The notes: generated by a model from the letters alone, not told the origin. A stretch of DNA of 64,000 nucleotides from a virus (IMGVR_UViG_3300022592_000003:25243-89242), one strand, 5' to 3'; counted from the stretch's first letter, positions 26,148-39,983 are shown. Translations and numbers: made by a program.

Positions 26148-28178
26148 GTGTTTTCGTTTAAACTAGCAGAAGATTTTGTCAGTTCCTATCGTTCGAAGAA
26201 GGTCCCCTGGGGTTACCAGGATGCTGCGGGTAACTCCGTAGGCGAGATTACTTTCTTGCGTACCTACTCCCGTCTTAAAGAGGACGGAACCAAGGAAACT
26301 TGGACAGATGTATGTGAGCGTGTCATTGACGGCATGTATTCACTTCAGAAAGACCACGCCAAGCAGAACCGTCTGCCTTGGTCTGACGTTAAGGCCGCTT
26401 CCTCAGCGAAGGAAGCCTTTGACCGCCTCTGGAACCTAAAGTGGACTCCACCCGGCCGTGGCCTATGGATGATGGGTACACCCCTCGTCAATGTTCAGAA
26501 GAACTCTGCAGCGTTGCAGAACTGCTCCTTTGTATCTACAAATGCTATGACCAAGATTGACCCAGCCAAGCCTTTCGCCTTCCTTATGGAGGCATCTATG
26601 CTGGGAGTCGGTGTTGGCTTTGATGATAAGGGGGCAGATAAAGACTTTACTATCTACCCTTGCGAAGCAGGAGAAACATATGTCATCCCCGACACCCGAG
26701 AAGGCTGGGTTGAATCCACAGCCGCCCTCATCAATTCTTACCTTAAGCCAGATACGAAGTGCCCTGTATTTGACTACTCACAAATCCGACCAGCCGGTAC
26801 TCCGATTAAAACCTTTGGAGGCACCGCAGCCGGAGCAGAACCGCTAATCAAACTCCACAACCATATCTCTAGGATCTTTGGAAGTCGTGCCGGTGACAAG
26901 CTCACCCGTCGTGACATTGCAGATCTTGGAAACCTTATTGGCGTTTGCGTAGTATCCGGTAACGTCCGCCGCTCAGCAGAGCTTCTCATTGGTCGTATTG
27001 ACGATGAGGAATTTCTGAACTTAAAGAATGCTGAAGCATTCCCAGAGCGTAACTCCTACGATCCAGAGAATCCTGGTTGGGGTTGGATGTCTAACAACTC
27101 TGTCGAGGTATCTGTCGGTCAGGACCTAACCCCCATCATTGAGGGTATTGCCCGCAACGGTGAGCCTGGCGTAATCTGGATGGATGTAACCCGTAAGTAC
27201 GGTCGTCTTGCAGATCCTGAGAACAACAAGGACTGGCGTGCAGCTGGGTACAACCCATGTGCAGAGCAGTCATTGGAATCAATGGAGTGCTGTACTTTGG
27301 TTGAGACATATATCAATCGTCACGACAGCCTAGAGGATTTCAAGCGCACCTTGAAATTCGCATACCTCTACGCTAAAACAGTTACTTTGATCCCTACGCA
27401 CTGGGAGGAGACCAACGCTATCATGCAGCGTAACCGCCGCATCGGTACGTCAATCTCCGGTATCGCCAACTTTGCCGATACAAAGGGTCTCCCACTCCTT
27501 CGTACATGGATGGATGAGGGTTACAAGGTAGTAACTAGCTATGACAAGAGTTACTCTGAATGGCTCGGCATCCGTGAATCAATCAAGATGACAACTGTAA
27601 AGCCATCCGGCACAGTCTCAATCTTGGCTGGAGAATCTCCAGGAGTTCACTGGACCCCAGGCGGCGAGTACTTCCTTCGTACCATCCGCTTTGCTAACAA
27701 TGACCCTATGTTGCCTCTATTTAAGATGGCTAACTACCGCATTGAGCCTTCGAGTACCGACCCAGATAATACCTCAGTCGTATACTTCCCGATCAAGTCT
27801 CAGGCCCAGCGTTCTGAGAAGGATGTCTCTATTTACGAGAAGATGGCACTGGCAGCTACTGCCCAGCGTTACTGGTCAGATAACTCTGTATCTGTAACCG
27901 TGTCGTTTAATCCTAAGACTGAGGCCGAAGCTATTGGCACCGTACTGCACATGTACGATGGTCAATTAAAGACCGTATCATTCCTTGCTATGGATGATAC
28001 TCTTTATCCCCAAATGCCGTACACCCAGAGTACTGCTGAGGAATATGAAGCAGCAACTGCAAGTCTTTTTCCAATTGACCTAGCTGGTGTCTACGCAGGT
28101 ATGGCCTTCGATGCTATCGGAGAAGCGTACTGCACAACAGATGCTTGCGAAATTAAGTTGGTAAAGGACAATCAGTAA
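26148..28178 (+). CDS. nrdJ: Class II (adenosylcobalamin) ribonucleotide reductase
   Basis: TPPGRGLW, LQNC, GNVRRSA, NPCAEQ, TTVKPSGT, C-terminal CTTDAC. Confidence 0.95.
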   Translation: MFSFKLAEDFVSSYRSKKVPWGYQDAAGNSVGEITFLRTYSRLKEDGTKETWTDVCERVIDGMYSLQKDHAKQNRLPWSDVKAASSAKEAFDRLWNLKWTPPGRGLWMMGTPLVNVQKNSAALQNCSFVSTNAMTKIDPAKPFAFLMEASMLGVGVGFDDKGADKDFTIYPCEAGETYVIPDTREGWVESTAALINSYLKPDTKCPVFDYSQIRPAGTPIKTFGGTAAGAEPLIKLHNHISRIFGSRAGDKLTRRDIADLGNLIGVCVVSGNVRRSAELLIGRIDDEEFLNLKNAEAFPERNSYDPENPGWGWMSNNSVEVSVGQDLTPIIEGIARNGEPGVIWMDVTRKYGRLADPENNKDWRAAGYNPCAEQSLESMECCTLVETYINRHDSLEDFKRTLKFAYLYAKTVTLIPTHWEETNAIMQRNRRIGTSISGIANFADTKGLPLLRTWMDEGYKVVTSYDKSYSEWLGIRESIKMTTVKPSGTVSILAGESPGVHWTPGGEYFLRTIRFANNDPMLPLFKMANYRIEPSSTDPDNTSVVYFPIKSQAQRSEKDVSIYEKMALAATAQRYWSDNSVSVTVSFNPKTEAEAIGTVLHMYDGQLKTVSFLAMDDTLYPQMPYTQSTAEEYEAATASLFPIDLAGVYAGMAFDAIGEAYCTTDACEIKLVKDNQ

Positions 28179-28405
28179 TGGTAACCGTATACAGCAATCC
28201 AAATTGCTCACAATGCGAGGCTACTAAGCGCTTTCTTACTTTGAAGGAGATTCCTTTCGAAGCTAAGATGCTGGAGGATTCTCCAGAGATTATGCCACTG
28301 ATCAAGGAGAAGGGGTACAAGGTAGCTCCTGTAGTAGTTACCGATACCGATTCGTGGTCAGGCTTTAAACTAGACAAGCTAAACGAACTAGCAGAAACCG
28401 CCTAA
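28178..28405 (+). CDS. nrdH: NrdH-like glutaredoxin
   Basis: VYSNPNCSQC...APVV...WSGF. Confidence 0.92.
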   Translation: MVTVYSNPNCSQCEATKRFLTLKEIPFEAKMLEDSPEIMPLIKEKGYKVAPVVVTDTDSWSGFKLDKLNELAETA

Positions 28406-28413
28406 GGAGAACC

Positions 28414-28557
28414 ATGTCAGACGATCTAAACCCAGACCTATTCGATGAAGACTTCGAAGATGACTTCGAAGACGGCCTTGATGAACTAGACCTCGATGAT
28501 GAGGACCTAGATGACCTCGAAGCAGACCTCGCAGATGACGAGGATGTAGAGGCCTAA
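28414..28557 (+). CDS. Extremely acidic 47-aa protein (not in ORF track)
   Basis: AAGGAG RBS; MSDDLNPDLFDEDFEDDFEDGLDELDLDDEDLDDLEADLADDEDVEA. Confidence 0.75.
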   Translation: MSDDLNPDLFDEDFEDDFEDGLDELDLDDEDLDDLEADLADDEDVEA

Positions 28558-28578
28558 AAAACGGCCAACACAAACATT

Positions 28579-28610
28579 TGGCCCCCGACTCAATGAAGAG
28601 CCGGGGGCCA
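28579..28610. terminator. Hairpin at the convergence of the two arms
   Basis: TGGCCCCC...GGGGGCCA stem. Confidence 0.65.
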
Positions 28611-28624
28611 TTTGCTTGTCCTAA

Positions 28625-28834
28625 TTAACTAGCTAAGACACGACCTGAGTTATCCGTTAACTCAAAGTACTGAGTGTCCGAGTCATCTATATCTTCATAG
28701 CTCTCTAGCTCATCAGGATATGTGTCGCCTGCAAGAAGCTGCTCGTATATATCCTTAGCATGCTCGGCGTCATCTGCGTCAAATATTAGTGTGCCATTCT
28801 TCTGCATACTAAACATTACTCTGAACTTAGCCAT
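28625..28834 (-). CDS. Small acidic hypothetical protein
   Basis: AAGGAGG RBS; MAKFRVMF... Confidence 0.65.
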   Translation of the reverse strand: MAKFRVMFSMQKNGTLIFDADDAEHAKDIYEQLLAGDTYPDELESYEDIDDSDTQYFELTDNSGRVLAS

Positions 28835-28957
28835 TGGTTTCCTCCTTGTATTGGCATTCACATTCTTTTACATCAAAGTCGTCATTAGATTCCCAATAGA
28901 CGACCCCCGTACCATGACACATATTACAGGTACGGGGTAGTACGGTTTCCATGTCCA

Positions 28958-29224
28958 TCATGCATCAGCCTTCCAGGTCAACTCACCTGCTAGGTGTGTA
29001 GGCTTACCAGCTTCATTTGTAGCACCGATAACCATCTTGATTGACTTGCGCGGTGTGTTCTCAAGTACGTAAGCCTTGAGATATCGCTTAGCTGCAGATG
29101 GGTTAGCCCAAGCAGAGTGCATAGAACCATTGCTGTCTGTAACAGTCAATAACCATGCCCCACCCTTCTCTACAGTTGTGTTCTTAGTTAGTGTTGCTTC
29201 TAGTTTCTTAGTTACTTTAGCCAT
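28958..29224 (-). CDS. Basic hypothetical protein
   Basis: GGAGG RBS. Confidence 0.7.
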   Translation of the reverse strand: MAKVTKKLEATLTKNTTVEKGGAWLLTVTDSNGSMHSAWANPSAAKRYLKAYVLENTPRKSIKMVIGATNEAGKPTHLAGELTWKADA

Positions 29225-29234
29225 CTGTGCCCTC

Positions 29235-29471
29235 CTAGAGCTTTATATCTTCGTTGAAGCCGACTTTCTTTAGATCTCGCAAGATGTTCTTGCCAGCTCT
29301 ACGATCACCCAGAGATTGTGGTCCGAAGAACACAACCTTTCGTGTATCTGGGTTGACCACCTTAACGTGGTGTTTACCTGGCGTGATGCTGACTTCCAGG
29401 CCAGCTATCTCTAGGGCATCCACCAGCTTGCGTATTTCCTTTGTCTTTATTGGCAATGATGCAAATAGCAT
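29235..29471 (-). CDS. HicA-like protein
   Basis: IRKLVDALEIAGLEV...GKHHVKVVNP...DRRAGKNILRDLKKVG. Confidence 0.6.
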   Translation of the reverse strand: MLFASLPIKTKEIRKLVDALEIAGLEVSITPGKHHVKVVNPDTRKVVFFGPQSLGDRRAGKNILRDLKKVGFNEDIKL

Positions 29472-29539
29472 TCCATCATTCCCCCTTTCTTGGTGTAGAC
29501 TTGGGGCGTAAGCTCTTAAAGAACAGAGTTCACGCCCTC

Positions 29540-29568
29540 AAGGCCCCGGGATTGCGCCCCGGGGCTTT
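29540..29568. terminator. GC hairpin
   Basis: GGCCCCGGG/CCCGGGGCT stem. Confidence 0.5.
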
Positions 29569-29764
29569 ATATTTCTTCGATTGTTTCTATGTATGCTTCC
29601 TCATTGGGTCTGTTCAGATCCTTAACATTAACCCAGTTGGCTACATTCCTGTCGTATACGCATAGACTCCACTCTCTGTTACTGTCTATAGACTGGTCAT
29701 CTACTCTCCACTTTTTGATCTTGACTCTGAACGTAACACGTAGGTCATATAGATCGTTATCCAT
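29567..29764 (-). CDS. Hypothetical protein
   Basis: AGGGG RBS. Confidence 0.55.
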   Translation of the reverse strand: MDNDLYDLRVTFRVKIKKWRVDDQSIDSNREWSLCVYDRNVANWVNVKDLNRPNEEAYIETIEEI

Positions 29765-29811
29765 TTATCCCCTATCTCCTAATCCATTCTAGCGGGATTG
29801 TTTGTGTTGGG

Positions 29812-30006
29812 TCAAATTTCAAAGCCGGAGTCATCATAGATCTCCCCGATCTCTGTCCAACCAGCCATTTCATCCTTAGACCATAGATGCGTCTCATCAT
29901 TTGAGATGCTGTTCTCAGCCATGGCCACCGCATCTTCACGGTTATTGGCTTCAAGCGTATAGTCATAGATCACATGCTCATGGATAGTTACTCTGTATCG
30001 TTTCAT
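29812..30006 (-). CDS. Small acidic hypothetical protein
   Basis: MKRYRVTIHEHVIYDYTLEANNREDA..; resembles 28625-28834 in pattern. Confidence 0.65.
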   Translation of the reverse strand: MKRYRVTIHEHVIYDYTLEANNREDAVAMAENSISNDETHLWSKDEMAGWTEIGEIYDDSGFEI

Positions 30007-30146
30007 CCCTTTACCTCCCAATCGTCACATACGGATTGAACTGCATCATCTAGATCTGCACAGAGGAGTTCGATCTCATCCTCTGACCAGTCAGCTACCA
30101 TCAAGCGTGTTACTTTTGCTTGCCAGACTACTTCGTTCTCAGGCAT
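30003..30146 (-). CDS. 47-aa hypothetical protein (not in ORF track)
   Basis: AGGAG RBS; MPENEVVWQAKV...; ATGA coupling. Confidence 0.55.
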   Translation of the reverse strand: MPENEVVWQAKVTRLMVADWSEDEIELLCADLDDAVQSVCDDWEVKG

Positions 30147-30612
30147 TTAGTGCTCCTGTCTCGTAGGTGAGTATTGCTGCTTCATCGCTGAAACATTCTT
30201 CAACGATCTTTGGGTGAACTTCTTCCCGCATTACACGGAAAGAATCTCTAGGCCAGCCTTGATCCATAACCCTAGTAAGTAAATTAGCTAAGGCATAGTC
30301 TGGGTAGGTGGTGTTTGCGTACTTCAGAAGTTGTGCTGCCGCTTCATCCTGCCCTAACTCGTAGCGGAACACTGCTTGGATTGTAATGAATGGGGCTAGA
30401 TCTTCAGACGGTGCCTTGCGACACATATACTCGATAAACTCAAGACTGTCTTCAATACCCCACTTCACTGGAGCACCCATCAACCAGTCCCTAACCTGTA
30501 GGTCAGAGTTAACGCCTAAGATAACCGCCTCTAACTTTTCACCGTCTAAATCAATTCCGGTGTTTAGTGTCTCGGTGATTAACTCACATACTAGCTTTCT
30601 TGTTACTATCAT
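30139..30612 (-). CDS. DUF4192-like helical protein
   Basis: DLQVRDWL...YELG...A...PDYALANLL. Confidence 0.55.
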   Translation of the reverse strand: MIVTRKLVCELITETLNTGIDLDGEKLEAVILGVNSDLQVRDWLMGAPVKWGIEDSLEFIEYMCRKAPSEDLAPFITIQAVFRYELGQDEAAAQLLKYANTTYPDYALANLLTRVMDQGWPRDSFRVMREEVHPKIVEECFSDEAAILTYETGALNA

Positions 30613-31066
30613 TCTTGCTCTCCTTTTTTACGATGGTACGGAATGTCCTACCGGGTGTAGGCCATTTGTATGGCAGGTCAGGACGTACACGAAACCGGTA
30701 CCAAACCGGATCTTTACGTTTGAGGTTAGAACGATGTGACTTGTGGAACTCATCGTTACCCCACCACCATGGTGGATCCCAACCTTGTATATCGTGTGTT
30801 GCATATAGCTCTTGCAGCTGTGCCTGTACGTTATCTTGATAGCCACGTTGTCTCCACTCCATGCACATAGCGTTCGTGTACATGTAGAGATAGCCTTCGT
30901 GACCACGCCACATTACTGCTGCAGGGTGATTAACCCACCCCTTAGTTAGACCTAAGTTAGCCCTCAGAATTTGCAACGCTTCTACACGTTGCTTACCAAG
31001 TCTCTTATTGTCTAAGGATTTTGCTGTTCTTGTTTGGTCTGGCCAAGGCAGGAATGTATTAACCAT
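30584..31066 (-). CDS. Pyrimidine-dimer DNA glycosylase (DenV/MSMEG_6728-like)
   Basis: TFLP...LDNKRLGKQRVEALQIL...GWVNHPAAVMWRG...PWW...FHKSHRSNL. Confidence 0.88.
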   Translation of the reverse strand: MVNTFLPWPDQTRTAKSLDNKRLGKQRVEALQILRANLGLTKGWVNHPAAVMWRGHEGYLYMYTNAMCMEWRQRGYQDNVQAQLQELYATHDIQGWDPPWWWGNDEFHKSHRSNLKRKDPVWYRFRVRPDLPYKWPTPGRTFRTIVKKESKNDSNKKASM

Positions 31067-31142
31067 TAGTCCTCCTTAGGCTCTATACACTTGTGGTATT
31101 CCCACAAGCCTTGTTTCATGTGATCTCCACACCAATTGCACA

Positions 31143-31301
31143 TTATTCCTCCAATAGCATTGGGATTAGATCTTCTGCATCATGTTTGATGAGTAGGTTG
31201 CGTACGGTCTCTTTGTTCTTAGCGTAGAGATCGTCCTCTCGTTGTTTAAGCATCTCACTCAGCCATGTGGCTGGGTCATCCTGTCTTAAACGGTTGTTCA
31301 T
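31143..31301 (-). CDS. 52-aa hypothetical protein (not in ORF track)
   Basis: MNNRLRQDDP...; ATGA coupling. Confidence 0.5.
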   Translation of the reverse strand: MNNRLRQDDPATWLSEMLKQREDDLYAKNKETVRNLLIKHDAEDLIPMLLEE

Positions 31302-31489
31302 GCTTGACCTACAAGCACGATGTGGTTATCTTGGGCCCACTCTTCAGGTTCAGATACAGATTCGATGGTGAGGTTTTCCCCACCATCGGCTAGTTCATCT
31401 GACGCATACAAGAGCCACATCTGGGCGCTCTCGTAATCGTTGAATGGTCCTATCAACGTCTCAGTGAGACTGTCGTATATGACATGCAT
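31298..31489 (-). CDS. Hypothetical protein
   Basis: GGAG RBS. Confidence 0.6.
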   Translation of the reverse strand: MHVIYDSLTETLIGPFNDYESAQMWLLYASDELADGGENLTIESVSEPEEWAQDNHIVLVGQA

Positions 31490-31512
31490 TTTGACTCCAT
31501 TGTTTGTGTTGG

Positions 31513-33348
31513 TTAACGATTGCGCTTTTTGATAGCGCCTGTGACTACTGACTTGGCAAACGGTAGAAGATCACGAGCCGACTTGATTCGACCATAGATC
31601 TCAGCACCGTGACGCCATTCATTCTCATTAGATCCTCGACCTGCATACCATTCAGCCGTACTGTCATCCATGATCAATGTCATGGCTGTTAGCACGCCTC
31701 GCTTGGCAATACGTTCGATGATCTCATCGTTCTTGTTGGCGTCAAACGCACCGTCGGTGATGATGAACAGCATCTTGTTCTTCTTACGAGAGGACATAAG
31801 TAACTGTTCGGCAGCAAGCAATGTGGAATACGGATTGGTTCCACCATTGCCATAGATGAACTTATACCTGCTCTTATCAGCAAGCTCAGTACGGCCATAC
31901 GCCAGCTCAGCCTGGTCATCGAATGCATAGACTGTGACTGGAGCACCGATCTGTTCTAGAGCACGCTTGATTGTCCAGCATGCGATAGAAGCATCACGGT
32001 CGTTACCACCACCGGACATAGAGCCTGATCTATCCACCATGATTACGGCTTCAACATCAGCACCATCATTGCCTTCGTCCCAACGATCGAATGCTTCATC
32101 AACTTCACAGCCTCTGATAGCACGCTGAACATTGAGCTTACCGCTGGCTTCCTCACGATGCCACATAGGTTCACACTCGTCACGCAAACGTTGTAGTTCA
32201 CGAGCAAACTTGCGATACAAGACCATGGATTCATCAGGGACGATAGTCTTATCGAACTTACCCTTCTTGATCGCATCATCATGTTTACCGTCTCCGCCAA
32301 CGATTACCTTCTGCTTAGTCTTGATATCCTGCTGAACGTCTTTACGTTCTAGCACTGTCTGGATAGTGTCCTCAAGCATGTCTTTGACTGATTGTGGAAT
32401 ACCACCAAGACTATCTACATGGCCTTGGCCAGGAGTCATAGATGGTGGTAGGTTGCTCTGCTGATTTTGCTCTCTAATGTCTAGAGCTTCTTGAGCAGAT
32501 TGTGGTTGCGTGGTTGTTTGTGTTGGATTGGATTTAGGAGCGACTGATGTTGACTCAGCCTTACCCATACCACCAGCACGCTTGGCATCCTTCTCCTGAG
32601 CCTTGCCAGGTTCGGGACGACCTTTGGTTACTGGGTCACGATTAGTACAGCCGTTAGGACCTTGCGGCATGTTCGGCATGTCTAGATTACCTAGCACCTC
32701 ATCATTGAAGCGCTTGATAAGTTCCTGACCCTTAGCATAGTCACGTGGGAATGCCAACAGACGATACTGATCTACGATGTCTGCGATTACTGGCACGAGT
32801 TCAGGCTTAGCAAACATATCTCTGAATGCTTGCCTGATTTCAATTGGTAGATATCTACGACCACGGACTAGCAAATAGTTTCCTGCTGCTTCCTCCGGTG
32901 TTGTTGATAGCCACCTAGATATTGTTGCTGTTAGATACGGCGCAATAGATGGATAACGAGCGACTAGCAAGGTTTCAATACGCTGATCCTCCAGCATATT
33001 GGCTGCTTGCATTAAGTCGTTCTCGACTACCCACTTCATGAACGTAGTACCACGACGTGGTGTATACAAGTGATGAGCAAGCTCATGATAATTAAGGCCG
33101 TTGACTTGAGTTAGTGTCTCAAGATCTATCTCCTTGATCTCATCGGCATTGAACGTAATAGATTGTCCGTCTGACCATGCTGGCGCTGGACCACCTTGAA
33201 CTACGTTAATCGTAACCGGATCTCCAGAGAGAACACGGTCAGCCTGCTCATACACACGGCAGAGAGCGTTGAGTCGTACAGATCGTTCCTGTGCTTCCTC
33301 GTCACGTTCCTGCCGATACCACGCATCATTCAGGTCTTCCTCAAACAT
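31513..33348 (-). CDS. VWA-domain protein with N-terminal HExxH region (CobT-like)
   Basis: HELAH, LEDQRIE; MIDAS DRSGSM, GGT, ITDG. Confidence 0.88.
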   Translation of the reverse strand: MFEEDLNDAWYRQERDEEAQERSVRLNALCRVYEQADRVLSGDPVTINVVQGGPAPAWSDGQSITFNADEIKEIDLETLTQVNGLNYHELAHHLYTPRRGTTFMKWVVENDLMQAANMLEDQRIETLLVARYPSIAPYLTATISRWLSTTPEEAAGNYLLVRGRRYLPIEIRQAFRDMFAKPELVPVIADIVDQYRLLAFPRDYAKGQELIKRFNDEVLGNLDMPNMPQGPNGCTNRDPVTKGRPEPGKAQEKDAKRAGGMGKAESTSVAPKSNPTQTTTQPQSAQEALDIREQNQQSNLPPSMTPGQGHVDSLGGIPQSVKDMLEDTIQTVLERKDVQQDIKTKQKVIVGGDGKHDDAIKKGKFDKTIVPDESMVLYRKFARELQRLRDECEPMWHREEASGKLNVQRAIRGCEVDEAFDRWDEGNDGADVEAVIMVDRSGSMSGGGNDRDASIACWTIKRALEQIGAPVTVYAFDDQAELAYGRTELADKSRYKFIYGNGGTNPYSTLLAAEQLLMSSRKKNKMLFIITDGAFDANKNDEIIERIAKRGVLTAMTLIMDDSTAEWYAGRGSNENEWRHGAEIYGRIKSARDLLPFAKSVVTGAIKKRNR

Positions 33349-33357
33349 TTACCCTCC

Positions 33358-34767
33358 TTATACTATGGCGGTGTGTTGGGTTACCCATTGTGCTAACTGC
33401 TCATCAATAGGTAGGTCTACTTGCTGCTCAACTTCGATCTGGATTTCCATACCGAAGTCAGTCTTGATGTTGTGCTCGTGTGTCTGGAATACCAGACGTA
33501 CGGATGCTTGCTCGTCTGCTGAGAAGTGAGCAATGAAGTTCTCAACTGCAAAGTCATAGCCGAGATCCTCATCCTTGATGAACTCCTCGATCTCCATGAG
33601 CATGTTAGTTGAGATTGGGGTCTCATACTGACCCTTGGCTGCCTCGCCACGCAATTGCTTAACGAGTGATAGCAAGGACTTGGATGAGACTAGCTTTGCC
33701 TCGACATTGTCGTCGTAATCCCATGACAGTTGAATGTCAAAGCGGTTACGCATAGCAAAGTTGAGCGGTGTGGTACCGATATAGTCTGGGTTCATGGTCG
33801 CAAAGATTGTTAGATCCTTGTGGGCCACGATTGTTTCACCCATATGATCGAGCAGCGTAATGCTACGACGACCATCGGTGAGTGGATATAGGGTGGTATA
33901 GATCTTAGGACTGATGAAGTTCATCTCGTCCAGTAGTAGTACACCACCGTTGCGAACAACGTCAGTTACTGGCCCGTCAATCCAGCCATAGCTGCCGTTG
34001 CCATCAGGAATAAAGCCACCGAATAGCTGGCGAGACTCCATAGATGCGTTACCAGATACTGTTGCCATACGCAAGCCACGTGCTGCGGCCCACGCTTCAA
34101 CAGCTGTAGTCTTACCGGGGCCGGTTGGGCCGTAGATAAGAACGTTGATGTGCTTATCACGTGCTTTGTCGAAGATGTTGAAGTCTTCAACGTTGTACAG
34201 CTTACGATGTACATATCGTTCTGCCAAATGCTGTGGCGGAACTGTAGCTAGTGATACAGCAAATGTTGGAGACGCTGTCTGCTGTACAGGAGCGGCATCC
34301 TCGTTTGTTTGTGTTGGGACAGGAACTACTAGAGGAACTGTAGTGCTTGTCGCAGCACGATTATCTGTTACGTATGCTTCCAATGAATCATCTCCGATGC
34401 TGATTTGTTCGTAGAAGTTACACACAACATCTACCAGAGGTGTTGTGTCTGTTGTTGGTTCAGCCTTGGAATGCTTGTCGCATGCCTTGGTGCCCAACAC
34501 TGGGGAATATCCCTTGGAAGTCATGGCACGCTCATCCGCTGGCGTAACGTATACGCCAACAGGAGTCCGTGTCAATATCTCACTATCCAAAATGCTACTA
34601 GTTAGACTGTCAAGAGTAGTTTCCTCCCACTTATTGTGAGGACCCTTAGTTCCATCGGTCAACCTAGAGTACACACGCACATTACCATCATGCGGTGTGA
34701 TAAGAACTTGACGACGCTTGCCGTTCAAGCCCTCATCGTATGACTCAGTGAACATTGCTATGTCCAT
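33358..34767 (-). CDS. MoxR/CbbQ/CobS-like AAA+ ATPase
   Basis: GPTGPGKT, LLLDEMN, TMNPDY, AMRNRF. Confidence 0.92.
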   Translation of the reverse strand: MDIAMFTESYDEGLNGKRRQVLITPHDGNVRVYSRLTDGTKGPHNKWEETTLDSLTSSILDSEILTRTPVGVYVTPADERAMTSKGYSPVLGTKACDKHSKAEPTTDTTPLVDVVCNFYEQISIGDDSLEAYVTDNRAATSTTVPLVVPVPTQTNEDAAPVQQTASPTFAVSLATVPPQHLAERYVHRKLYNVEDFNIFDKARDKHINVLIYGPTGPGKTTAVEAWAAARGLRMATVSGNASMESRQLFGGFIPDGNGSYGWIDGPVTDVVRNGGVLLLDEMNFISPKIYTTLYPLTDGRRSITLLDHMGETIVAHKDLTIFATMNPDYIGTTPLNFAMRNRFDIQLSWDYDDNVEAKLVSSKSLLSLVKQLRGEAAKGQYETPISTNMLMEIEEFIKDEDLGYDFAVENFIAHFSADEQASVRLVFQTHEHNIKTDFGMEIQIEVEQQVDLPIDEQLAQWVTQHTAIV

Positions 34768-34793
34768 TTGTTACCCTTTCTCTCGGTTATTGC

Positions 34794-35033
34794 TTAGTTG
34801 TCAGGACCGAACAGTCGTTCGGCCATCACAGTTATGAAGGTGAAGCTTGCTTGCCTAGATTGTGGCCACTCAGTAATCAATTCAAATAGAATATCTTTCT
34901 CAGAGGCACTATCTATTACTTTGCTGAATTGTCCTTGAGCAAACTCAATGAACTCTTCACGTTCTTCTTCAGGAATCATGTCAAGAGTAAACTCTTGTGG
35001 TTCGATTCCCTCATCGTCACATTCGTGACACAT
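34794..35033 (-). CDS. Acidic hypothetical protein
   Basis: AGAAAGGA RBS. Confidence 0.65.
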   Translation of the reverse strand: MCHECDDEGIEPQEFTLDMIPEEEREEFIEFAQGQFSKVIDSASEKDILFELITEWPQSRQASFTFITVMAERLFGPDN

Positions 35034-35051
35034 ATGCTTTCCTTTCTCTAG

Positions 35052-35215
35052 ATGTTTGGTTGGCTTACCTCTGGCGCCTTCAGGGACTTTTGGGTCTAGC
35101 TCAACGTCACCTCAACTGCCGCTACACACGATGGTATCTGTGTGCACTAGTCATTTTGGATCGGTCTCTTGCATCACCGCCGGTATGTCGGAAGTAGGCT
35201 TAGCCAACCAAACAT
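35052..35215. ncRNA. Candidate structured element bounded by a 14-bp inverted repeat
   Basis: ATGTTTGGTTGGCT/AGCCAACCAAACAT plus nested inner stems in an intergenic gap. Confidence 0.45.
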
Positions 35216-35225
35216 AGCTGACAAC

Positions 35226-35522
35226 CTAGAGCTGCCAGCCGATCGAGACACTTACTGAACCATCTACATCATAGTGATCTAGATTGATTCCACGTTGCCA
35301 GCGGTCAAGCATTACCTTTTTACCGCTTTCACGTGTGGATTCGTAGCAACCAAGATATGACTCGTGGTAATGCTCGAAGCCTTTATGTCGGGTGTTATAT
35401 ATTTCCAAGTACTGTTGATGTGCTTGGATACGACGTCCGCAATTGCCGCAAGAGTTGATTGCTGTTACCAGTTCATTCTCAGAGGCTGTCTGCGACGCCC
35501 TTAACTTAGCCTTTTCAGACAT
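35226..35522 (-). CDS. Hypothetical protein (CxxC)
   Basis: GAAAGGG RBS; CGNCG. Confidence 0.6.
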   Translation of the reverse strand: MSEKAKLRASQTASENELVTAINSCGNCGRRIQAHQQYLEIYNTRHKGFEHYHESYLGCYESTRESGKKVMLDRWQRGINLDHYDVDGSVSVSIGWQL

Positions 35523-35553
35523 AGTCACCCTTTCTCGGGTTTGTTTGTGTTGG

Positions 35554-36054
35554 TTAGTATTTACCCTGGGCTTTTTCCATGACTACAACGTCAACAGAGT
35601 TTTGTGTACTGTTAACGAGGATGTCATGGAAAGCACCATGGTCCATCTGCTTACTTAAAGCACCGGCTACAGTACCTAAGTAATTTCCTGCACTGCCTGG
35701 CTTATTACGGAGAATAGCCCGTGTAGCCACTACAGTTTCACCCCATGCATATGCAAGAGGCGCTAGATATTCACTGTATGCCTTCACAGTGTTATCCATT
35801 CCATCAGGTGTGCCAGCGATAGCAGCAGAAAGAATCTCGAGGGTGCGAGATCTTTCTTCAGTATCTGCGTTTGACAACAGGAAGCTCATTACAGCATCCC
35901 TGAAGTTTGTAGATATCTCGCTCATCTGTACTAGATTGCGAGGAACTAAGCCACCTCTAAGGTACTGCGATGCAAGAGCAGGATCCGTTGTTTCACCTGA
36001 CATGTATGCAGCGATAGAGATGTTAGGATCATAATTAACTTTGAGATCCAACAT
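35554..36054 (-). CDS. Helical hypothetical protein, weakly like 30139-30612
   Basis: FRDAVM...YAWGE pattern. Confidence 0.6.
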   Translation of the reverse strand: MLDLKVNYDPNISIAAYMSGETTDPALASQYLRGGLVPRNLVQMSEISTNFRDAVMSFLLSNADTEERSRTLEILSAAIAGTPDGMDNTVKAYSEYLAPLAYAWGETVVATRAILRNKPGSAGNYLGTVAGALSKQMDHGAFHDILVNSTQNSVDVVVMEKAQGKY

Positions 36055-36772
36055 ATGCGGCTACCATCCTTTCTAGTTCGTTCATTGGTTGTTTTACTAT
36101 GTTGCCATTCTGTACTCTGATAGGCGAACCATCCCAAAGTACAGAAACCTTTTTATTCCCATAGTCACGCTTGCCAAGACCGTTACATGACCAACACATT
36201 TCTGTTAGTTTTGTTAGGTGACTGTCTGTTTGATTATGACTACATTCGAGTTGGTGATACTTTCTCCAATTATTTGAAGGCTGTGCGCCTGGATGATCAG
36301 GGCAAATAAATGTCCCATCCTCAGCAGTACTACCTACAAAACAAGTTGGTGGATTACACCAGCCATCTATTTTGCCGATCTGCCTACACATACGGCAGCC
36401 TTGGGTCTTTGATGGGGTAAACGCAGCATCACGTTCGGTGATATAGAATTTGAAATTACGGCGGTTAACTTGAATACCGGCATACTTCCAGATGGTATAT
36501 CGCATGCTCTGACTATCTAAGCAATTGAATGATCCACCCCAATGGGTAGATACCTGACCACCTTGTAAGGTCATAGTATCGTCAGGGTGAATTGTGATTA
36601 GTGGGTGCCTGTTAGTCCATTGATTGACTATCTGTATGTCGCTAGTCTTATTGAACTTGTTGGCATACTGAATGCGATTGCGTTGACCGTCATAGAGCGT
36701 ACGCTCCCATTTCTTACGGCCATTAGCAAGATACGATTGCCATTCAGCATACGTATGAACTCGCCAACTCAT
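36035..36772 (-). CDS. Cys-rich hypothetical protein
   Basis: CRMCRQIG and CWSCNGLG (DnaJ-like CxxCxGxG). Confidence 0.65.
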   Translation of the reverse strand: MSWRVHTYAEWQSYLANGRKKWERTLYDGQRNRIQYANKFNKTSDIQIVNQWTNRHPLITIHPDDTMTLQGGQVSTHWGGSFNCLDSQSMRYTIWKYAGIQVNRRNFKFYITERDAAFTPSKTQGCRMCRQIGKIDGWCNPPTCFVGSTAEDGTFICPDHPGAQPSNNWRKYHQLECSHNQTDSHLTKLTEMCWSCNGLGKRDYGNKKVSVLWDGSPIRVQNGNIVKQPMNELERMVAAYVGSQS

Positions 36773-37080
36773 TGCGCCTCCGCTGTCTCAAATAAACCTG
36801 CATAGCAGGCTACAGGAGCTGGATCCTCCATGTCAACATACTGGAGTTCGATAACACGCTCACGGTCACGCTCGAGTGTTTGTGTTGGCTCATTATCGAA
36901 CCACACAGATGTGAGTGATATCACAGATGAATCAGGTTTGAGTAACTTGAGGGCAAACCCCAAGCCATCCATCAAGCCACTGTGGTATGCACGACTATGC
37001 TGATGGTCATCCCAATGCAGGTCATCGTGCTCCTCAACTATCTGTTGCTCTATAGCCTTTACTATCTTCTTGCGCTTCAT
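36769..37080 (-). CDS. Hypothetical protein
   Basis: ATGA coupling. Confidence 0.6.
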   Translation of the reverse strand: MKRKKIVKAIEQQIVEEHDDLHWDDHQHSRAYHSGLMDGLGFALKLLKPDSSVISLTSVWFDNEPTQTLERDRERVIELQYVDMEDPAPVACYAGLFETAEAQ

Positions 37081-37349
37081 ACTAGTGACTTACCTAGTAG
37101 GGAAACAGACTGAGGGTTGTAAACCTTGCCTGTCTTCCAATGAGGTATTGATTTGTGATCAGCACGACCACCGGCAGCCTTCCAAGCCTCACGCTTTTCG
37201 TGGCTCTTGAGAGTACGACCGTTGACATGTGTGAAGTTAGACTTCTCCATCTGTGCTGGTCCTGGGTTTTGCTTGCGAGCCTTACCGTTCTTACGGTCAC
37301 CCGCTGTGTTTGCTTTCGGAGTTGATACTCCGCCTTTACCTTTTGCCAT
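37077..37349 (-). CDS. Basic hypothetical protein
   Basis: GAAAGGGG RBS. Confidence 0.6.
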   Translation of the reverse strand: MAKGKGGVSTPKANTAGDRKNGKARKQNPGPAQMEKSNFTHVNGRTLKSHEKREAWKAAGGRADHKSIPHWKTGKVYNPQSVSLLGKSLV

Positions 37350-37369
37350 TGTCTGGCCCCTTTCGGAGG

Positions 37370-37624
37370 TTAGTAGATTGTCTCTACACTGCTGTGTAGA
37401 GTTGTGATGCCATCCTCATCCCATAGGAATGAGGCTTCCTTGTAGGTCAGTCCCTTATAGGCAACCGCATCTACAATGAATTCTAGTCGTGCGATAGAGC
37501 GTTCAAAGACTCCTTGAACAGTCTCATCAATCAGTAATATGCGTCCTTGCTTGAAGGCTTGTTCTTGTACCTCAGCAATAGTTAGCTTAGGTGAGAGGCG
37601 CATCTCAAGATATATATCGTCCAT
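37370..37624 (-). CDS. Hypothetical protein
   Basis: TAATG coupling. Confidence 0.6.
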   Translation of the reverse strand: MDDIYLEMRLSPKLTIAEVQEQAFKQGRILLIDETVQGVFERSIARLEFIVDAVAYKGLTYKEASFLWDEDGITTLHSSVETIY

Positions 37625-37890
37625 TATTTATGCCAATCTACTAGATAGGTTGTGCCCCACTTATCATAGGGAATGTTGATGATGGTCCAAATCTTCCACC
37701 ACCTATATCCTGCTCGTGATAGTTCAGTGCCGTTGTAATGGGCAAAGTCTTCATGATCTAATGCTCGCTCTATCGCAAAACTTGATAGATGATTGCAAGC
37801 ATTGGCAAACCACCTGAGTGGCAAGATGTTGGTCTTGTGCTCTGGTGTGGTTGAATACTCAAACCTACCGTGCAAGTCTTCCGGTTCCAT
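37624..37890 (-). CDS. Hypothetical protein
   Basis: AAAGGAG RBS. Confidence 0.65.
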   Translation of the reverse strand: MEPEDLHGRFEYSTTPEHKTNILPLRWFANACNHLSSFAIERALDHEDFAHYNGTELSRAGYRWWKIWTIINIPYDKWGTTYLVDWHK

Positions 37891-37912
37891 AGTTACTCCT
37901 TTCTATTAGTAA

Positions 37913-37940
37913 TGAGCAGTTTATAGAGATGCTCAGCTCT
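37913..37940 (-). ncRNA. Compact H-type pseudoknot, copy 1
   Basis: AGAG CUGAGCAU CUCU AUAAAC UGCUCA. Confidence 0.65.
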
Positions 37941-37987
37941 TGGCGAGGGAGGTTTTCTGACTACAAGTCATCCCGCACTCCGTGCCG

Positions 37988-38060
37988 TGCCCTCAGCCAG
38001 AATCGAACTGGCAACACTCACCTTAGGACGATGATGTTCTATCCATTGAACTATGAGGGC
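37988..38060 (-). tRNA. tRNA-Arg(CCT), CCA not encoded
   Basis: GCCCTCA/TGAGGGC acceptor, TAGTTCAATGGATAGAAC D arm, TCATC-GTCCTAA-GGTGA anticodon arm, GCCAG-TTCGATT-CTGGC T arm. Confidence 0.9.
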
Positions 38061-38061
38061 G

Positions 38062-38092
38062 TAAGCAGTTTAGCCTTGTCATGCTTAGGACA
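38062..38092 (-). ncRNA. Compact H-type pseudoknot, copy 2
   Basis: UGUC CUAAGCAU GACA AGGCUAAAC UGCUUA. Confidence 0.65.
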
Positions 38093-38181
38093 GGAGTTCT
38101 TTTACCTCAGGAAGAACTATAGAAACCAACCACATGTGGACTCTCGTCTCTTAGACCACTTAATGTGTGTTATTAAATTGT

Positions 38182-38625
38182 TTAGCGGATGAACTGAGCC
38201 CAAGTAGATGTTGTTGTGATCTTGAACTCAGTATCTGTTGAGCCTTGGATGATTGCGATAGCATTTTCTACCTGATCGTAATCACTCAATGGCTTGCTGT
38301 AGTTTCGAGTTTTATACTCAGGACTACGAGAACACTGTGGGTATTTACCCAAGGCTGCCTCTAGTTCTGTAGTATCAAAGTAGATACTGGCACGATAGCT
38401 ATTCGCATAGCCTCCTATACCGATATCAAACTTTGTTGCCTTAGCGATGTTCTTCTTGACCCATGCTTCGGCCTTCTTTTCCCAAGCGGCACGACGCTTT
38501 TCAATGGTGGCAGAGTCTTTTTCCCACTCTGTTATCTCATCGTCCATACGCTTGATTGTTGCTTTTAACTTGGCGACTAGATCTTTCTTAGCCCAAGTTG
38601 TTGCGATTACCTTGGTTGAGGTCAT
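38182..38625 (-). CDS. Hypothetical protein
   Basis: AAGGAGG RBS before ATG 38625. Confidence 0.7.
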   Translation of the reverse strand: MTSTKVIATTWAKKDLVAKLKATIKRMDDEITEWEKDSATIEKRRAAWEKKAEAWVKKNIAKATKFDIGIGGYANSYRASIYFDTTELEAALGKYPQCSRSPEYKTRNYSKPLSDYDQVENAIAIIQGSTDTEFKITTTSTWAQFIR

Positions 38626-38972
38626 GGTAATAGCCCTCCTTTGTTGTACGTGGTCCCCACCACGGCTGTGGCGGGGCGTGTTTGTGTTGGTGCATGTTTT
38701 ATAGACCACATGCTCTGCGTCTTCATGTGCATACCATCTCTATACAGTCAGAACTAAGCCTTTGCCGTGTACATCCCACGAAGTATGTACGAGAGCAAAG
38801 GGTCCGGCCCATGCCTCTAGACTTATTAGCGTAGGCCTCTCAGCCATTGCGTTCGGATCCTTATGAACATGCCATTCCTAACCTGATCGTCGTGCGAGTC
38901 TGTATGTCTTGGATTACCTATGTAATCCAGTATGAGCAGGCACGTGCATCCTGCTCATACTGCATCGCATAG

Positions 38973-39020
38973 AAAAAAACGGGCGGGGGAGAGTACCCTC
39001 AGACTCTCAACCCCACCCCC
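38973..39020 (-). terminator. Intrinsic terminator
   Basis: G-rich/C-rich stem with GAGAGT/ACTCTC, then T7. Confidence 0.6.
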
Positions 39021-39030
39021 TCACATAAGA

Positions 39031-39291
39031 CTAGAACTCACGCTCCTCATAGGCACTGAGGGCATACTCCAACTTGTTAAAATACTCACCCACATGGCAT
39101 GTGCCACGAGCATGGTTATATGTCCATACGACATAGGGATCGTATGGGCTACGCTCTGAAGCGTCACATAGAATGATGTCGGTGTATTCATCAGCCTGCT
39201 TGTGCTTGATGATTACTGCACCAGTGCTGGCACCGCCGTCACCCTGAAGAATTGTGCCTTCAGTAATAGTTACAAGTGTGGACTCAACCAT
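39031..39291 (-). CDS. Hypothetical protein
   Basis: GGAGG RBS; PYVVW...GEYF motif. Confidence 0.65.
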   Translation of the reverse strand: MVESTLVTITEGTILQGDGGASTGAVIIKHKQADEYTDIILCDASERSPYDPYVVWTYNHARGTCHVGEYFNKLEYALSAYEEREF

Positions 39292-39415
39292 TATTTAGCC
39301 TCCAATATATTGTTAATCAGTTTGAGCATATGTATCTCAGCCTGAAGTTGATACATCTTGATCTGTATATCAGCGAGTTGCTGTGAGATTTCTAGCAATC
39401 GCTCTGAGTCATCGT

Positions 39416-39766
39416 CTAGCATGCGTACTTCTCCTTTAACTTAAGGCTCTTGAGGATTTGTTCTAGCGGTAGGTTTTTCTGGCCGGTAACCAACACGCCT
39501 CTATCCTTAGGTGTAGTACCACCCTGAATAGAGTGTCGGTCATCACGATCAACAGCATCTTTCAAGCACTCTAACTTGACAGGGCAATTAGCACAGACAC
39601 GCAAGGCTGCTTCAGCCTTAGCCTTGTAGTGCATGCCTCGCTCACCATCAGCAAAGTAAAACGCCTCAACATCACAGCCACGACAATTAGCCTTGTCCTG
39701 CCATGATAGGTCAGTACTCAACAGGGTGAGGATATGATGCCCTGGTCTAGCCATAGTTTCATTCAT
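39416..39766 (-). CDS. whiB: WhiB-family transcription factor (second copy)
   Basis: WQDKANC...FY...ALRVCANCPVKLECL...IQGGTTPKDR. Confidence 0.9.
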   Translation of the reverse strand: MNETMARPGHHILTLLSTDLSWQDKANCRGCDVEAFYFADGERGMHYKAKAEAALRVCANCPVKLECLKDAVDRDDRHSIQGGTTPKDRGVLVTGQKNLPLEQILKSLKLKEKYAC

Positions 39767-39960: not shown

Positions 39961-39983
39961 CACCTACAAAAAATTGCGGGGGA

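Follow-up and report, generated by a model that had tools for sequence, protein, structure and literature searches.

An oriented, evenly spaced 12-nucleotide word along one operon of an uncultured freshwater phage

Introduction

Cluster A mycobacteriophages carry 20-30 monomer-bound sites of 13-14 bp that are oriented with transcription, a minority of them in promoters and most elsewhere, and their subclusters differ in consensus word in step with the repressor, according to the available parts of two reports (PMC6550527, PMC9283540). The readers named there, L5 gp71 and the TipsytheTRex repressor, combine an N-terminal HTH with a stoperator domain (PMC9283540, PMC6550527). In the lytic Microbacterium phages of clusters EC and EI, the accessible text describes 5-12 copies of one asymmetric word, in a single orientation and within small intergenic gaps (PMC7302621). 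The nick sites of phage tf, as far as the excerpted account goes, are all on one strand across both convergent units (PMC3517423). Here we analyse a repeated 12-mer in an uncultured freshwater phage of ~100 kb, using a window of 64,000 nucleotides (IMGVR_UViG_3300022592_000003:25243-89242). Our literature search found no paper that describes this word.

Results

The word and its copies

An exact scan of the window located eight copies of the 12-mer CCAACACAAACA, one on the + strand (start 28565) and seven on the - strand (29799, 31501, 32515, 34306, 35542, 36877 and 38679), separated by gaps of 1234, 1702, 1014, 1791, 1236, 1335 and 1802 nt, exactly as listed in a preliminary description of this DNA. 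The chance expectation reported there, about 0.01 copies, was obtained again, and none of 100 shuffles reached a count of at least eight. The description had seen no copies elsewhere in the window; this holds for the entire virus record of 89,242 nt, where all eight are confined to 10.1 kb. Allowing up to two mismatches added just two matches, both with two mismatches and at chance level (5.9 expected), and exact and mismatch scans of window, record and relatives gave no scattered or antisense copies. The word is asymmetric, non-palindromic and without a dyad, and can be divided into two tandem hexamers (YCAACA.YAAACA, core YCAACACAAACA). Its edges are sharp at 12 nt, the flanks are unconserved and the 45 nt on either side hold no further conserved block.

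The sites and their neighbouring elements, in window coordinates, are:

28565..28576, + strand: terminal inverted copy, sense for the convergent + operon, 7 nt past the last ORF's stop
28579..28610, unstranded: bidirectional terminator hairpin at the meeting point of the two operons, 13 pairs, 10 of them GC
29786..29815, - strand: predicted internal promoter of sigma-70/sigma-A type, TTGACC-N18-TAGAAT, 10/12 consensus matches
31501..31512, - strand: copy directly after the VWA gene's TAA (0 nt), next ATG 11 nt on
32515..32526, - strand: copy within the VWA gene linker, reading PTQT in the window
34306..34317, - strand: copy within the AAA_5 ATPase gene, in the linker ahead of the AAA domain, reading PTQT
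35052..35215, - strand: structured intergenic element with a 14-bp closing stem (z = -2.6)
35542..35553, - strand: copy directly after the TAA of a 166-aa ORF (0 nt), preceding the next ribosome-binding site
36877..36888, - strand: copy within a 103-aa ORF, reading PTQT
38679..38690, - strand: first copy, located in the 5' leader of the unit that bears the array, an ATG following after ~53 nt
38973..39020, - strand: strong intrinsic terminator, read directly as GGGGGTGGGG...CCCCCGCCC plus a T-run, closing the upstream WhiB-containing unit

The array operon is one leftward unit of ~10 kb with about 22 ORFs, and the convergent + operon, of 12 kb, has a single copy just before its own terminator. 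This + copy at 28565 ends 2 nt ahead of the hairpin 28579-28610, at which every copy's arrow aims. The preliminary description had placed the single + copy after the last + gene, four copies 0-7 nt past a stop and three within coding sequences that read PTQT. All of this stands: the + copy adjoins the bidirectional hairpin as well, the distances are 7, 1, 0 and 0 nt for 28565, 29799, 31501 and 35542, and ORF reading gives PTQT at 32515, 34306 and 36877. The label "early arm" that it gave to the region is an assumption.

The eighth copy, at 38679, had been left unclassified and occupies a 5' leader position. It is flanked upstream by a covarying hairpin (38692-38713, loop UAUAAA) and downstream by a GC hairpin (38655-38676), and it lies within ~280 nt downstream of the terminator 38973..39020. 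As this terminator closes the upstream unit, the array unit must start no more than ~280 nt from its first copy; no identifiable main promoter of this unit was found to carry a copy. At the other end, the copy 29799-29810 fills the spacer of the predicted internal promoter, whose -35 element overlaps the TGA stop upstream, 1 nt before the copy. In the structured element, a near-complement of the word (35204-35214) pairs with a one-base-deleted copy (35053-35063) that directly precedes a ribosome-binding site; both stem arms are kept in five close relatives (L009, L011, L012, L013 and L024), and L010 keeps one.

Conservation, polarity and spacing

All 17 related IMG/VR loci retain the exact word, each with 3-10 copies in sense within a single ~10-kb operon. 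The complete relatives G001 and G002, of ~100 kb, have eight copies, every one inside a stretch of 10-11 kb. The sources that reach the operon end are 17 (the window and 16 loci), and in every one of them a single inverted copy adjoins the bidirectional terminator, between the stop codon and a GC hairpin (dG -19 to -26) that starts 1-4 nt after it. The 11-nt core CAACACAAACA has 129 sense copies versus 16 inverted ones in 314 kb from 17 sources; each inverted one is the single end copy of its source and is itself sense for the convergent operon. Distinct one-substitution variants number 21 sense and 1 inverted, with ~2.2 expected per strand. Two stray copies elsewhere in the relatives' genomes are both sense, and with them the proposal that orientation tracks transcription is borne out. 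The pattern TTGAY-N17/18-TAnnnT encloses the last sense copy in 16/17 sources.

The copies within genes permit the word to be separated from its translation. The AAA_5 copy encodes PTQT with identical codons in all 16 sources having the site, whereas the VWA copy is read in frame 0 (PTQT) in the window and in frame +1 (xNTN) in the 13 other loci that have it. Synonymous-site conservation had been suggested as a check in relatives, where the exact nucleotides are kept while the VWA reading frame shifts. Because the word persists across this frame difference between the window and its orthologues, selection at the nucleotide level is strongly supported by the comparison. This frame shift, like the lack of scattered or antisense copies, is the opposite of the outcomes that the preliminary description had named as refuting its proposal. 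The 12-mer is a real, selected control signal.

The copies are spaced much more evenly than expected by chance (CV 0.20, p~1e-4), with about one copy per 1.3-1.5 kb, a median gap of 1300 nt and intervals of at most about 1.8 kb. Copies are intergenic in 79 of 127 cases and mid-ORF in the other 48. Of the intergenic copies, 64/79 follow the upstream stop by no more than 13 nt, 42 of them by 0-1 nt, and the distance to the next start is variable (10-58 nt). Directly downstream, A occupies +1 in 80/107 distinct flanks with weak conservation to +7, and a T-poor tract follows (59 T in 856 positions at +3 to +10; background 0.21). The predicted probability of the word being unpaired is 0.148, versus 0.219 with shuffled flanks, and observed values exceed shuffled ones at 27/113 sites; the word is not under selection to stay unpaired in RNA. 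Cumulative GC skew reaches a peak near 26-28 kb and a dip near 40 kb, a profile confounded with gene orientation.

A sister lineage with another word

G007 (IMGVR_UViG_3300032236_000552), a genome-wide relative that is also a ~100-kb phage, has an unrelated 13-mer, TCCGACCTGCGAA, in seven exact copies and one variant on the sense strand over 10.9 kb. The G007 array passes through AAA and VWA homologues, one copy falling in the VWA linker and another following the VWA stop. Both arrays lie in an AAA/VWA operon convergent on an RNR operon, and each has eight copies, sense to the local genes, over ~11 kb. In contrast to the latter, G007 has A-runs before its 13-mer, lacks an inverted end copy, and belongs to a lineage with a Tyr integrase and, inside the array, a two-HTH regulator. 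Since the same layout is kept with an unrelated word, the reader of the word is probably lineage-specific and phage-encoded.

Searches for a reader

Sequence comparison over the whole record gave no homologue of L5 gp71 (best tblastn E = 0.12), and the proteins of the array operon had no HTH signal even at E <= 1. A single HTH, weak and of MerR type, was seen in the record, and it belongs to the replication module. No Tyr integrase was detected in G000, G001, G002 or G003, nor a Ser recombinase or ParB in G000, and no repressor was found; the profile searches and the gp71 comparison agree with the earlier statement that no integrase or repressor is visible. Among the candidate readers then put forward, WhiB and the weak MerR-type HTH were confirmed by Pfam, and RHH, KTSC-like and SpoVS proteins were undetected in the searches run.

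Discussion

The observations cover the word and its polarity, selection on its nucleotides, the even spacing, the overlap with a promoter and the replacement of the word in a sister lineage. The preliminary description had proposed an oriented, regularly spaced site system acting by roadblock, antitermination or RNA-protein loading; the system stands, as one selected at the nucleotide level, and the three mechanisms are inseparable on present data. We rank a roadblock first, an RNA-level target second and antitermination-type loading lower, the last because the convergent 12-kb operon has one copy, just before its terminator.

We tentatively favour a stoperator-like set of polar operator and roadblock sites, to which we would give somewhat less than an even chance. 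In this model a single sequence-specific factor, particular to the lineage and most likely encoded by the phage, would recognise the 12-mer as its asymmetric site; the factor, a protein, would read the site as duplex DNA and bind each copy in one polarity. Once bound, it would occlude the internal sigma-A-type promoter whose spacer contains a copy and block RNA polymerase moving in the sense direction; the whole operon, together with read-through from the convergent one, would be silenced together at a set time in an apparently lytic cycle. In favour, one class of copies occupies a true operator position, inside the promoter spacer, in 16/17 sources. The exactness and polarity of the copies, the selection on nucleotides, the asymmetric dyad-free site at a density like that of Cluster A, the turnover of the word under a kept layout and the lack of selection for an unpaired word in RNA also speak for it. 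Against this, no reader was found for the word, and with neither a Tyr or Ser integrase nor ParB the lineage has no lysogeny to maintain. The array is limited to about 10% of the genome, unlike genome-wide stoperators, and the 48/127 in-ORF copies together with the regular spacing imply a length scale that a simple roadblock does not need. A roadblock at the end copy, before the convergent operon's own terminator, seems redundant. No identifiable main promoter was found to hold a copy, the model leaves the T-poor downstream tract unexplained, and the two-HTH regulator of the sister lineage is absent in the present one.

It is possible, if rather doubtful, that these arrays are not stoperators and form a distinct, undescribed class of "milestone" signals of ~100-kb actinophages. 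A polar word would then be needed every 2 kb or so at most along one operon, even where this means writing it through proteins, and its identity would be swapped wholesale between sister lineages. In a transcript version it would serve programmed shut-off, also clipping the terminator off the convergent operon's mRNA; in a DNA version it would be read by a distance-limited DNA-tracking machine. If true, such a system would work in lytic phages without a repressor.

The main rival, though one we consider unlikely, is a target at the mRNA level: a phage-encoded, sequence-specific RNA-binding protein or endoribonuclease would recognise the word in the transcript and would shut off or partition the operon mRNA. 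All copies are on the sense strand of transcribed DNA, the intergenic ones hug the upstream stop while their distance to the next start varies, and the even spacing would set a natural fragment length. The one-base-deleted copy sequestered by its own complement in structured intergenic RNA and the covarying hairpin beside the first copy also fit an RNA target. At the end copy, between stop and terminator hairpin in 17/17 sources, one cut in the 3' UTR of the convergent operon would remove the protective hairpin. RNAs started at the internal promoter would be free of the word, and they code for a weak HicA-like protein (phrog_2089, 3e-9), but its HicA membership is sub-threshold (Pfam E = 0.0017, below the cut-off). 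Predicted RNA folds do not keep the word accessible, cleavage within the AAA and VWA ORFs would destroy the corresponding mRNAs, and a metatranscriptome contig of one relative spans a copy (loose end at 32542). We know of no bacterial or phage RNase with 12-nt specificity.

An improbable alternative is a co-transcriptional loading or pause site, ops/RfaH- or nut/boxA-like, read on the non-template strand or the nascent RNA by an elongation factor that would be re-loaded every 1-2 kb and keep the long operon processive. A transcription bubble and ops both measure about 12 nt, a size like that of the word. The strictly sense orientation, a first copy in the 5' leader just past a terminator and regular spacing suit re-loading, and the T-poor tract could tune the RNA-DNA hybrid. 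However, the equally long convergent operon has its one copy where antitermination would be harmful, the NusG-like domain PF02357 had no match in G000 (control positive in 11/14 genomes), and the word's turnover from one sister lineage to the other speaks against a conserved host factor.

Less probable still is a single-element promoter or activator site that would mark a middle-gene class, the host polymerase being redirected by an unrecognised phage factor. The sharp upstream edge, the A at +1 with weak conservation to +7, the T-poor initial region and the many copies between a stop and a ribosome-binding site are promoter-like, and the word differs between lineages at the same places, as it does among T7-group promoters. 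Even so, 48/127 copies are mid-ORF, transcription from the end copy would run directly into a terminator and one copy overlaps a host-type promoter. Oriented intergenic repeats occur in lytic Microbacterium phages that encode sigma factors, as the accessible text has it (PMC7302621), but G000, G001, G002 and G007 gave no sigma-70 region 2, 4 or 4_2 (Sigma70_r2, r4, r4_2). A scan for T7-type RNA polymerase (PF00940) had no match and is uninformative, since its control was silent as well.

We regard site-specific single-strand nick sites, as in tf/LUZ24, phiKMV and T5, as very unlikely. The exact short word, its same-strand one-off variants and its synteny in relatives are as in tf, so far as the excerpts of that report show (PMC3517423). 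The sequencing evidence consists of contigs of 14 runs, in which 5/16 contig ends lie within 20 nt of a copy, a weak hint from the 8 low-depth contigs listed of 66 run-X7 DNA contigs; higher-depth contigs cross all copies. Here, unlike in tf, the strand flips with transcription (seven -, one +, the stray copies likewise), the sites occupy only 10% of the genome, and no HNH was found in G000, G001 or G002. Least credible of all are polar DNA signals that converge where the operons meet, Ter-like fork barriers or KOPS-like translocase guides: all arrows, the two stray copies included, aim at the 28.6-kb convergence point, the opposed orientations resemble a fork trap and the GC skew profile (with the same confounding) is in keeping with one, but the 7-10:1 asymmetry fits poorly, an opposed copy is missing from G007, gene orientation accounts for the same polarity, and the searches made for other domains brought up no Tus/RTP/FtsK-like candidate.

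Comparison with known systems

The array resembles the nick sites of tf/LUZ24-like, phiKMV-like and T5 phages in that positions are conserved while the word differs between related phages, in the available part of the source (PMC3517423). Those sites keep one physical strand across convergent units in that account, whereas the strand of the present word follows transcription.

With the EC and EI repeats it shares lytic actinophages and an asymmetric, one-orientation word in small gaps upstream of ribosome-binding sites. The accessible text on these phages gives words of 18-30 bp with several consensus departures, always intergenic and 21-30 bp before the start (PMC7302621). It also reports an encoded sigma factor, and none was found in the present lineage. 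In-ORF copies, even spacing and an inverted end copy are not described for EC/EI in that portion of the report.

The comparison with Cluster A, drawn from the partial texts cited above, has differences on both layout and lifestyle. Cluster A sites are genome-wide and in both arms, whereas here they lie in one ~10-kb operon, with 48/127 copies in ORFs, regular spacing and an inverted copy at the convergent operon's terminator; Cluster A phages are temperate (integrase or parABS) with a repressor, and here no repressor homologue, integrase or parABS is detectable. The likeness is one of site sequence and layout, with binding here putative: an asymmetric, dyad-free word of 12-14 bp in many near-exact copies oriented with transcription, about one site per 1.5-2 kb, some copies inside a promoter and the majority outside, many in very short intergenic spaces beside stop codons, and different words in related lineages, as in G007, where the word is replaced and the layout kept.

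Distribution of the repeated word

Scanning for the 12-mer CCAACACAAACA recovered all eight exact copies reported in the preliminary description of the window, one on the plus strand and seven on the minus strand, where 0.01 copies are expected by chance. Its observation of no copies elsewhere in the window also held, and the 12-mer is absent from the rest of the whole record (89,242 nt, of which the window is bases 25243-89242; 89% complete according to the CheckV estimate). Allowing up to two mismatches added two further matches in the window, which is the chance level. The 12-mer is the sole strongly repeated exact k-mer of the window, and in an alignment of the eight copies that included 40-60 nt of flank its edges are sharp and the flanks unconserved.

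The seven minus-strand copies form an array along one operon, in which few proteins could be named; besides those listed below, Pfam identifies a pyrimidine-dimer glycosylase and a DUF4192 protein.

Features of the array-bearing region
Leftward block of small ORFs, minus strand: holds the seven minus-strand copies
39416-39766, minus strand: WhiB (Pfam)
38973-39020, minus strand: strong terminator
33358-34767, minus strand: AAA_5 ATPase (AAA; Pfam)
31513-33348, minus strand: VWA protein (Pfam)
29235-29471, minus strand: HicA-like protein, weak (sub-threshold) match, 78 aa, pI 10
28579-28610, unstranded: bidirectional terminator, end of the array-bearing unit
28565, plus strand: inverted copy of the 12-mer (end copy), 7 nt past the last plus-strand ORF and 2 nt ahead of the hairpin at 28579-28610

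The WhiB-containing unit ends at the terminator 38973-39020, so the array unit (about 22 ORFs) begins no more than about 280 nt from the first copy (38679, minus). The convergent plus-strand operon encodes RNR, an NrdH-like protein and an acidic 47-aa product, and the gene content of the phage includes PolA, RecA, an SF2 helicase, a T4-type large terminase and lysis genes. Within 28958-29471 (minus) a conserved basic protein of 88 aa comes after the HicA-like one. Of the 17 loci searched, 16 have both, the miss (L024) being a locus that stops short of the region. These two genes, which may constitute a toxin-antitoxin-like pair, sit in an internal-promoter unit whose transcript would be without the 12-mer.

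Conservation in related phages

A search with the AAA protein retrieved 16 related IMG/VR loci, 71-91% identical, and a seventeenth came from an alignment query. The exact word is present in every related locus, with 3-10 copies each, located on the same strand as the AAA gene. Among whole records, the complete relatives G001 and G002 (~100 kb) carry eight copies each, seven sense and one inverted, within 10-11 kb; the whole records of three further relatives hold seven (G003) and nine (G004 and G005), the latter two each including one stray copy distant from the array. Both strays follow the sense of the local gene, one within an ORF and the other 9 nt past a stop codon, before a ribosome-binding site.

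Across 17 sources (314 kb) the 11-nt core CAACACAAACA has 129 sense and 16 inverted copies, and the base preceding the sense copies is exclusively C (111) or T (18). Distinct one-substitution variants number 21 in sense and one inverted, which is the L023 end copy; about 2.2 would be expected per strand. Several of the variants occupy gaps that lack an exact copy. Variation is limited to positions 1 (C>T, 13), 7 (C>T, 4), 12 (A>C, 3; A>T, 1) and 3 (A>G, 1). Given that the variable positions 1 and 7 lie six apart, the word can be divided into two tandem hexamers, YCAACA.YAAACA.

The copies within ORFs are located in low-complexity linkers. In the AAA gene the copy encodes PTQT with identical codons in 16 of 16 sources while adjacent codons diverge, and the VWA copy, which reads P-T-Q-T in the window, is shifted by one frame to x-N-T-N in all 13 other loci with an exact VWA copy. 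The preliminary description had raised the case of relatives that keep PTQT but change its codons freely; the relatives display the opposite, with the nucleotides kept across a frame change. Judged from these alignments, selection is acting on the nucleotides of the word.

The cultured distant relatives Brevibacterium phage Cantare and Gordonia phage ChisanaKitsune (AAA about 46% identical) are without the word and carry other repeats instead: a near-palindrome built on ATACATAGA in the intergenic gaps of the AAA/VWA operon of Cantare, and in ChisanaKitsune AAAGGAACGCGC, located 13 nt ahead of five start codons in the manner of a start-associated sequence. Scanning for host contigs with RNR yielded one contig of a Cyclobacteriaceae MAG and one archaeal contig, with RNR alone in common, and gave no lead to a host. 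The former (contig 28, 73770-76853; 106 kb, AT-rich) encodes an RNR 75-78% identical to that of the phage, interrupted by approximately 1 kb between residues 370 and 371, possibly an intein or intron.

A different word in a sister lineage

The sister phage G007 (IMGVR_UViG_3300032236_000552; complete, 99,864 nt), examined through an IMG/VR search with its own unrelated 13-mer, shares structural, replication and lysis genes with the window phage genome-wide at 25-92% identity. The ORFs at 7737-8069 (plus) and 39416-39766 (minus) of the window both match a single G007 locus, 49420-49728, at 51% and 32% identity, respectively, so that the window phage probably carries two WhiB-like genes.

Seven exact copies and one variant of the 13-mer lie on one strand within 10.9 kb (66053-76936; loci L157 and L158). 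They run in sense through the AAA and VWA homologues (32% identical) and converge on the RNR (79% identical), and copies in the VWA linker and directly past the VWA stop match the layout of the window. No inverted end copy was found within two substitutions in 58001-90000, the 32 kb that comprise the array and the convergent junction. The last copy falls within a Tyr integrase gene (Pfam, 9e-21), and another precedes a protein of 202 aa that shows two weak HTH regions and bears the JGI label 'predicted transcriptional regulator'; its family of 56 homologues is found on several phage contigs of ~100 kb. This two-HTH family is absent from the records of the window phage, G001, G002 and G003 and from the relatives' loci, and none of these four records contains an integrase like that of G007. 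Since the layout is kept while the word is replaced, the factor recognising it (its reader) would be lineage-specific and is probably phage-encoded, which argues against a conserved host factor.

Search for the reader

Pfam and PHROGs searches of about 60 window ORFs identified no DNA- or RNA-binding family in the array operon. The preliminary description had noted no visible integrase, in agreement with six-frame scans of the whole record, which revealed neither Tyr nor Ser types, nor ParB, sigma-70 region 4, NusG or HNH; a T7-type polymerase was likewise unmatched in the record, but the control of that scan was itself silent. Sigma-70 regions 2 and 4_2 were not found in G001, G002 or G007, and the HNH domain occurs in G007 only, being absent from the window phage, G001 and G002. 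When compared with solved structures, the profile of the two-HTH family weakly resembles sigma region 4 (E at least 0.009) and does not match the stoperator repressor, and the MerR-type protein of the window (1793-2260) gave no informative match. Candidate readers are this protein, the conserved small basic proteins at 37077-37349, 36035-36772, 29235-29471 and 28958-29224, and further proteins that G007 also has (5501-5890, 11055-11405, 17312-17719, 17764-18258 and 20763-21110).

Spacing, placement and local structure

The gaps of the window have a coefficient of variation of 0.20, a value equally low in a fraction of 0.0001 of trials with randomly placed interior points, and even spacing (p < 0.05) was obtained for 14 of 16 sources; being related, these do not count as independent samples. 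Among the 107 gaps the shortest is 636 nt and the longest 2845 nt (median 1300 nt); with variants included, all are at most about 1.8 kb except one of 2678 nt in L025.

Of the 127 exact copies, 48 lie in ORFs, and 64 follow the stop codon of an ORF of at least 40 aa by no more than 13 nt, 42 of these by 0-1 nt; the other 15 are farther off. The next start preceded by a ribosome-binding site follows at 10-58 nt. With stop distances tight and start distances variable, the intergenic copies are anchored to the upstream stop and not to the downstream start. Downstream preference is weak (A at +1 in 80 of 107, C at +3, G or C at +4 in 97 of 107), and T is depleted at +3 to +10 (59 of 856 positions, against a background of 0.21).

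Two copies have fixed contexts. In 16 of 17 sources the last sense copy (29799, minus, in the window) occupies a promoter spacer, TTGAY-N17/18-TAnnnT, and the spacer keeps its length even where the -35 element has moved one base with respect to the word. Just beyond the inverted end copy, within 1-4 nt, 17 of 17 sources have a GC hairpin (-19 to -26 kcal/mol).

Predicted RNA elements of the array
38692-38713, minus strand: hairpin 1-27 nt upstream of the first copy, with an invariant UAUAAA in the loop
35216-35240, minus strand: terminator-like hairpin preceding the element at 35052-35215
35052-35215, minus strand: structured intergenic element of 164 nt, MFE -60.4 kcal/mol, z = -2.6

The stem at 38692-38713 shows compensatory changes among relatives (CATGT/ACATG, CGTGT/ACACG, ACGG/CCGT). 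The TATAAA upstream of the first copy was considered as a -10 box and rejected, as its final T is missing; because it is located in the loop of this covarying stem, we read 38692-38713 as an RNA hairpin. In the element at 35052-35215, the two arms of the 14-bp closing stem are a copy of the word lacking one base and its complement, and both are kept in the five closest relatives (L009, L011, L012, L013 and L024).

Possible mechanisms

Since the array shows site-level features of the Cluster A mycobacteriophage system, we tentatively rank first the reading of the copies as polar operator or roadblock sites in duplex DNA. The array enforces a maximum gap, which a roadblock does not need, and the end copy seems to be placed where a roadblock would be redundant. 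Both the end copy and the even spacing, together with stop-codon anchoring and the sequestered variant, would be accounted for by a target at the mRNA level. We hold this to be unlikely: the word is less often unpaired (0.148) than with shuffled flanks (0.219), the observed value exceeding the shuffled one at 27 of 113 sites, so this folding comparison gave no sign of selection for an accessible single-stranded site, and we know of no precedent for RNA recognition with 12-nt specificity.

A re-loading site for an elongation factor would suit the size of the word, its sense orientation and its leader position, but is rather improbable given that the equally long convergent operon is nearly free of copies. 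More doubtful still is the word as a promoter, for which mid-ORF copies and the end copy are ill placed, although the sharp upstream edge and the A at +1 fit; a bipartite promoter was rejected, flank comparison revealing no second conserved block within ±45 nt. The copies share exactness and strand-locked variants with known nick sites, but those of phage tf keep to one strand across convergent units, which leaves this reading very doubtful. Gene orientation and pointing to the junction coincide, making a Ter-like or KOPS-like polar DNA signal inseparable here, and we give it hardly any credence. Ops, Tus-Ter, KOPS, RegB and the T7 promoter served as comparison systems.

A role as recombination linker or mosaic boundary was rejected: in a blastn comparison of the window with 16 relatives, 7 of 220 block ends fell within 25 nt of copies, with 9.9 expected. 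In run X7, among the 8 low-depth DNA contigs listed of 66, 5 of 16 ends in 27500-41800 lie within 20 nt of a 12-mer copy, which may reflect microdiversity or chance. Among 14 runs of assembled contigs, one metatranscriptome includes small contigs that overlap the operon in places; they do not show transcription, and one of them, ending at 28565, was treated as uninformative.

Comparison with known systems

Literature searches returned the word in 16 unrelated eukaryotic or methods papers and in no phage paper, and no description of the array was found in work on stoperators, nick sites, conserved actinophage repeats or freshwater actinophages. Oriented intergenic repeats whose function is unknown have been described in lytic Microbacterium phages (PMC7302621), so that the phenomenon in general is already on record. 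Few regulatory features can be read directly from the genomes of uncultured phages, and oriented word arrays are one of them. The signs of function are clean here (nucleotides kept across a frame change, a maximum gap, a terminator-fixed copy and a word replaced in a sister lineage), which makes the question of the reader directly testable, and matching words against proteins across lineages offers a comparative handle on it.

The nearest documented system is that of the operators and stoperators of Cluster A mycobacteriophages. These sites are asymmetric, 13-14 bp long, monomer-bound and oriented with transcription, at 20-30 per genome; some lie in promoters and most outside, reversal inactivates them, and each subcluster has a word of its own that tracks the repressor (PMC9283540; PMC6550527). 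The window array resembles them in its asymmetric word, its orientation with transcription and the copy within a promoter. Unlike in Cluster A phages, no gp71-like protein was found by sequence comparison and no lysogeny genes were found in the window phage, its array is confined to one operon and many of its copies lie in ORFs. If the array does work without a lysogenic repressor, it would either extend stoperator-type control to lytic phages or represent a new mechanism.
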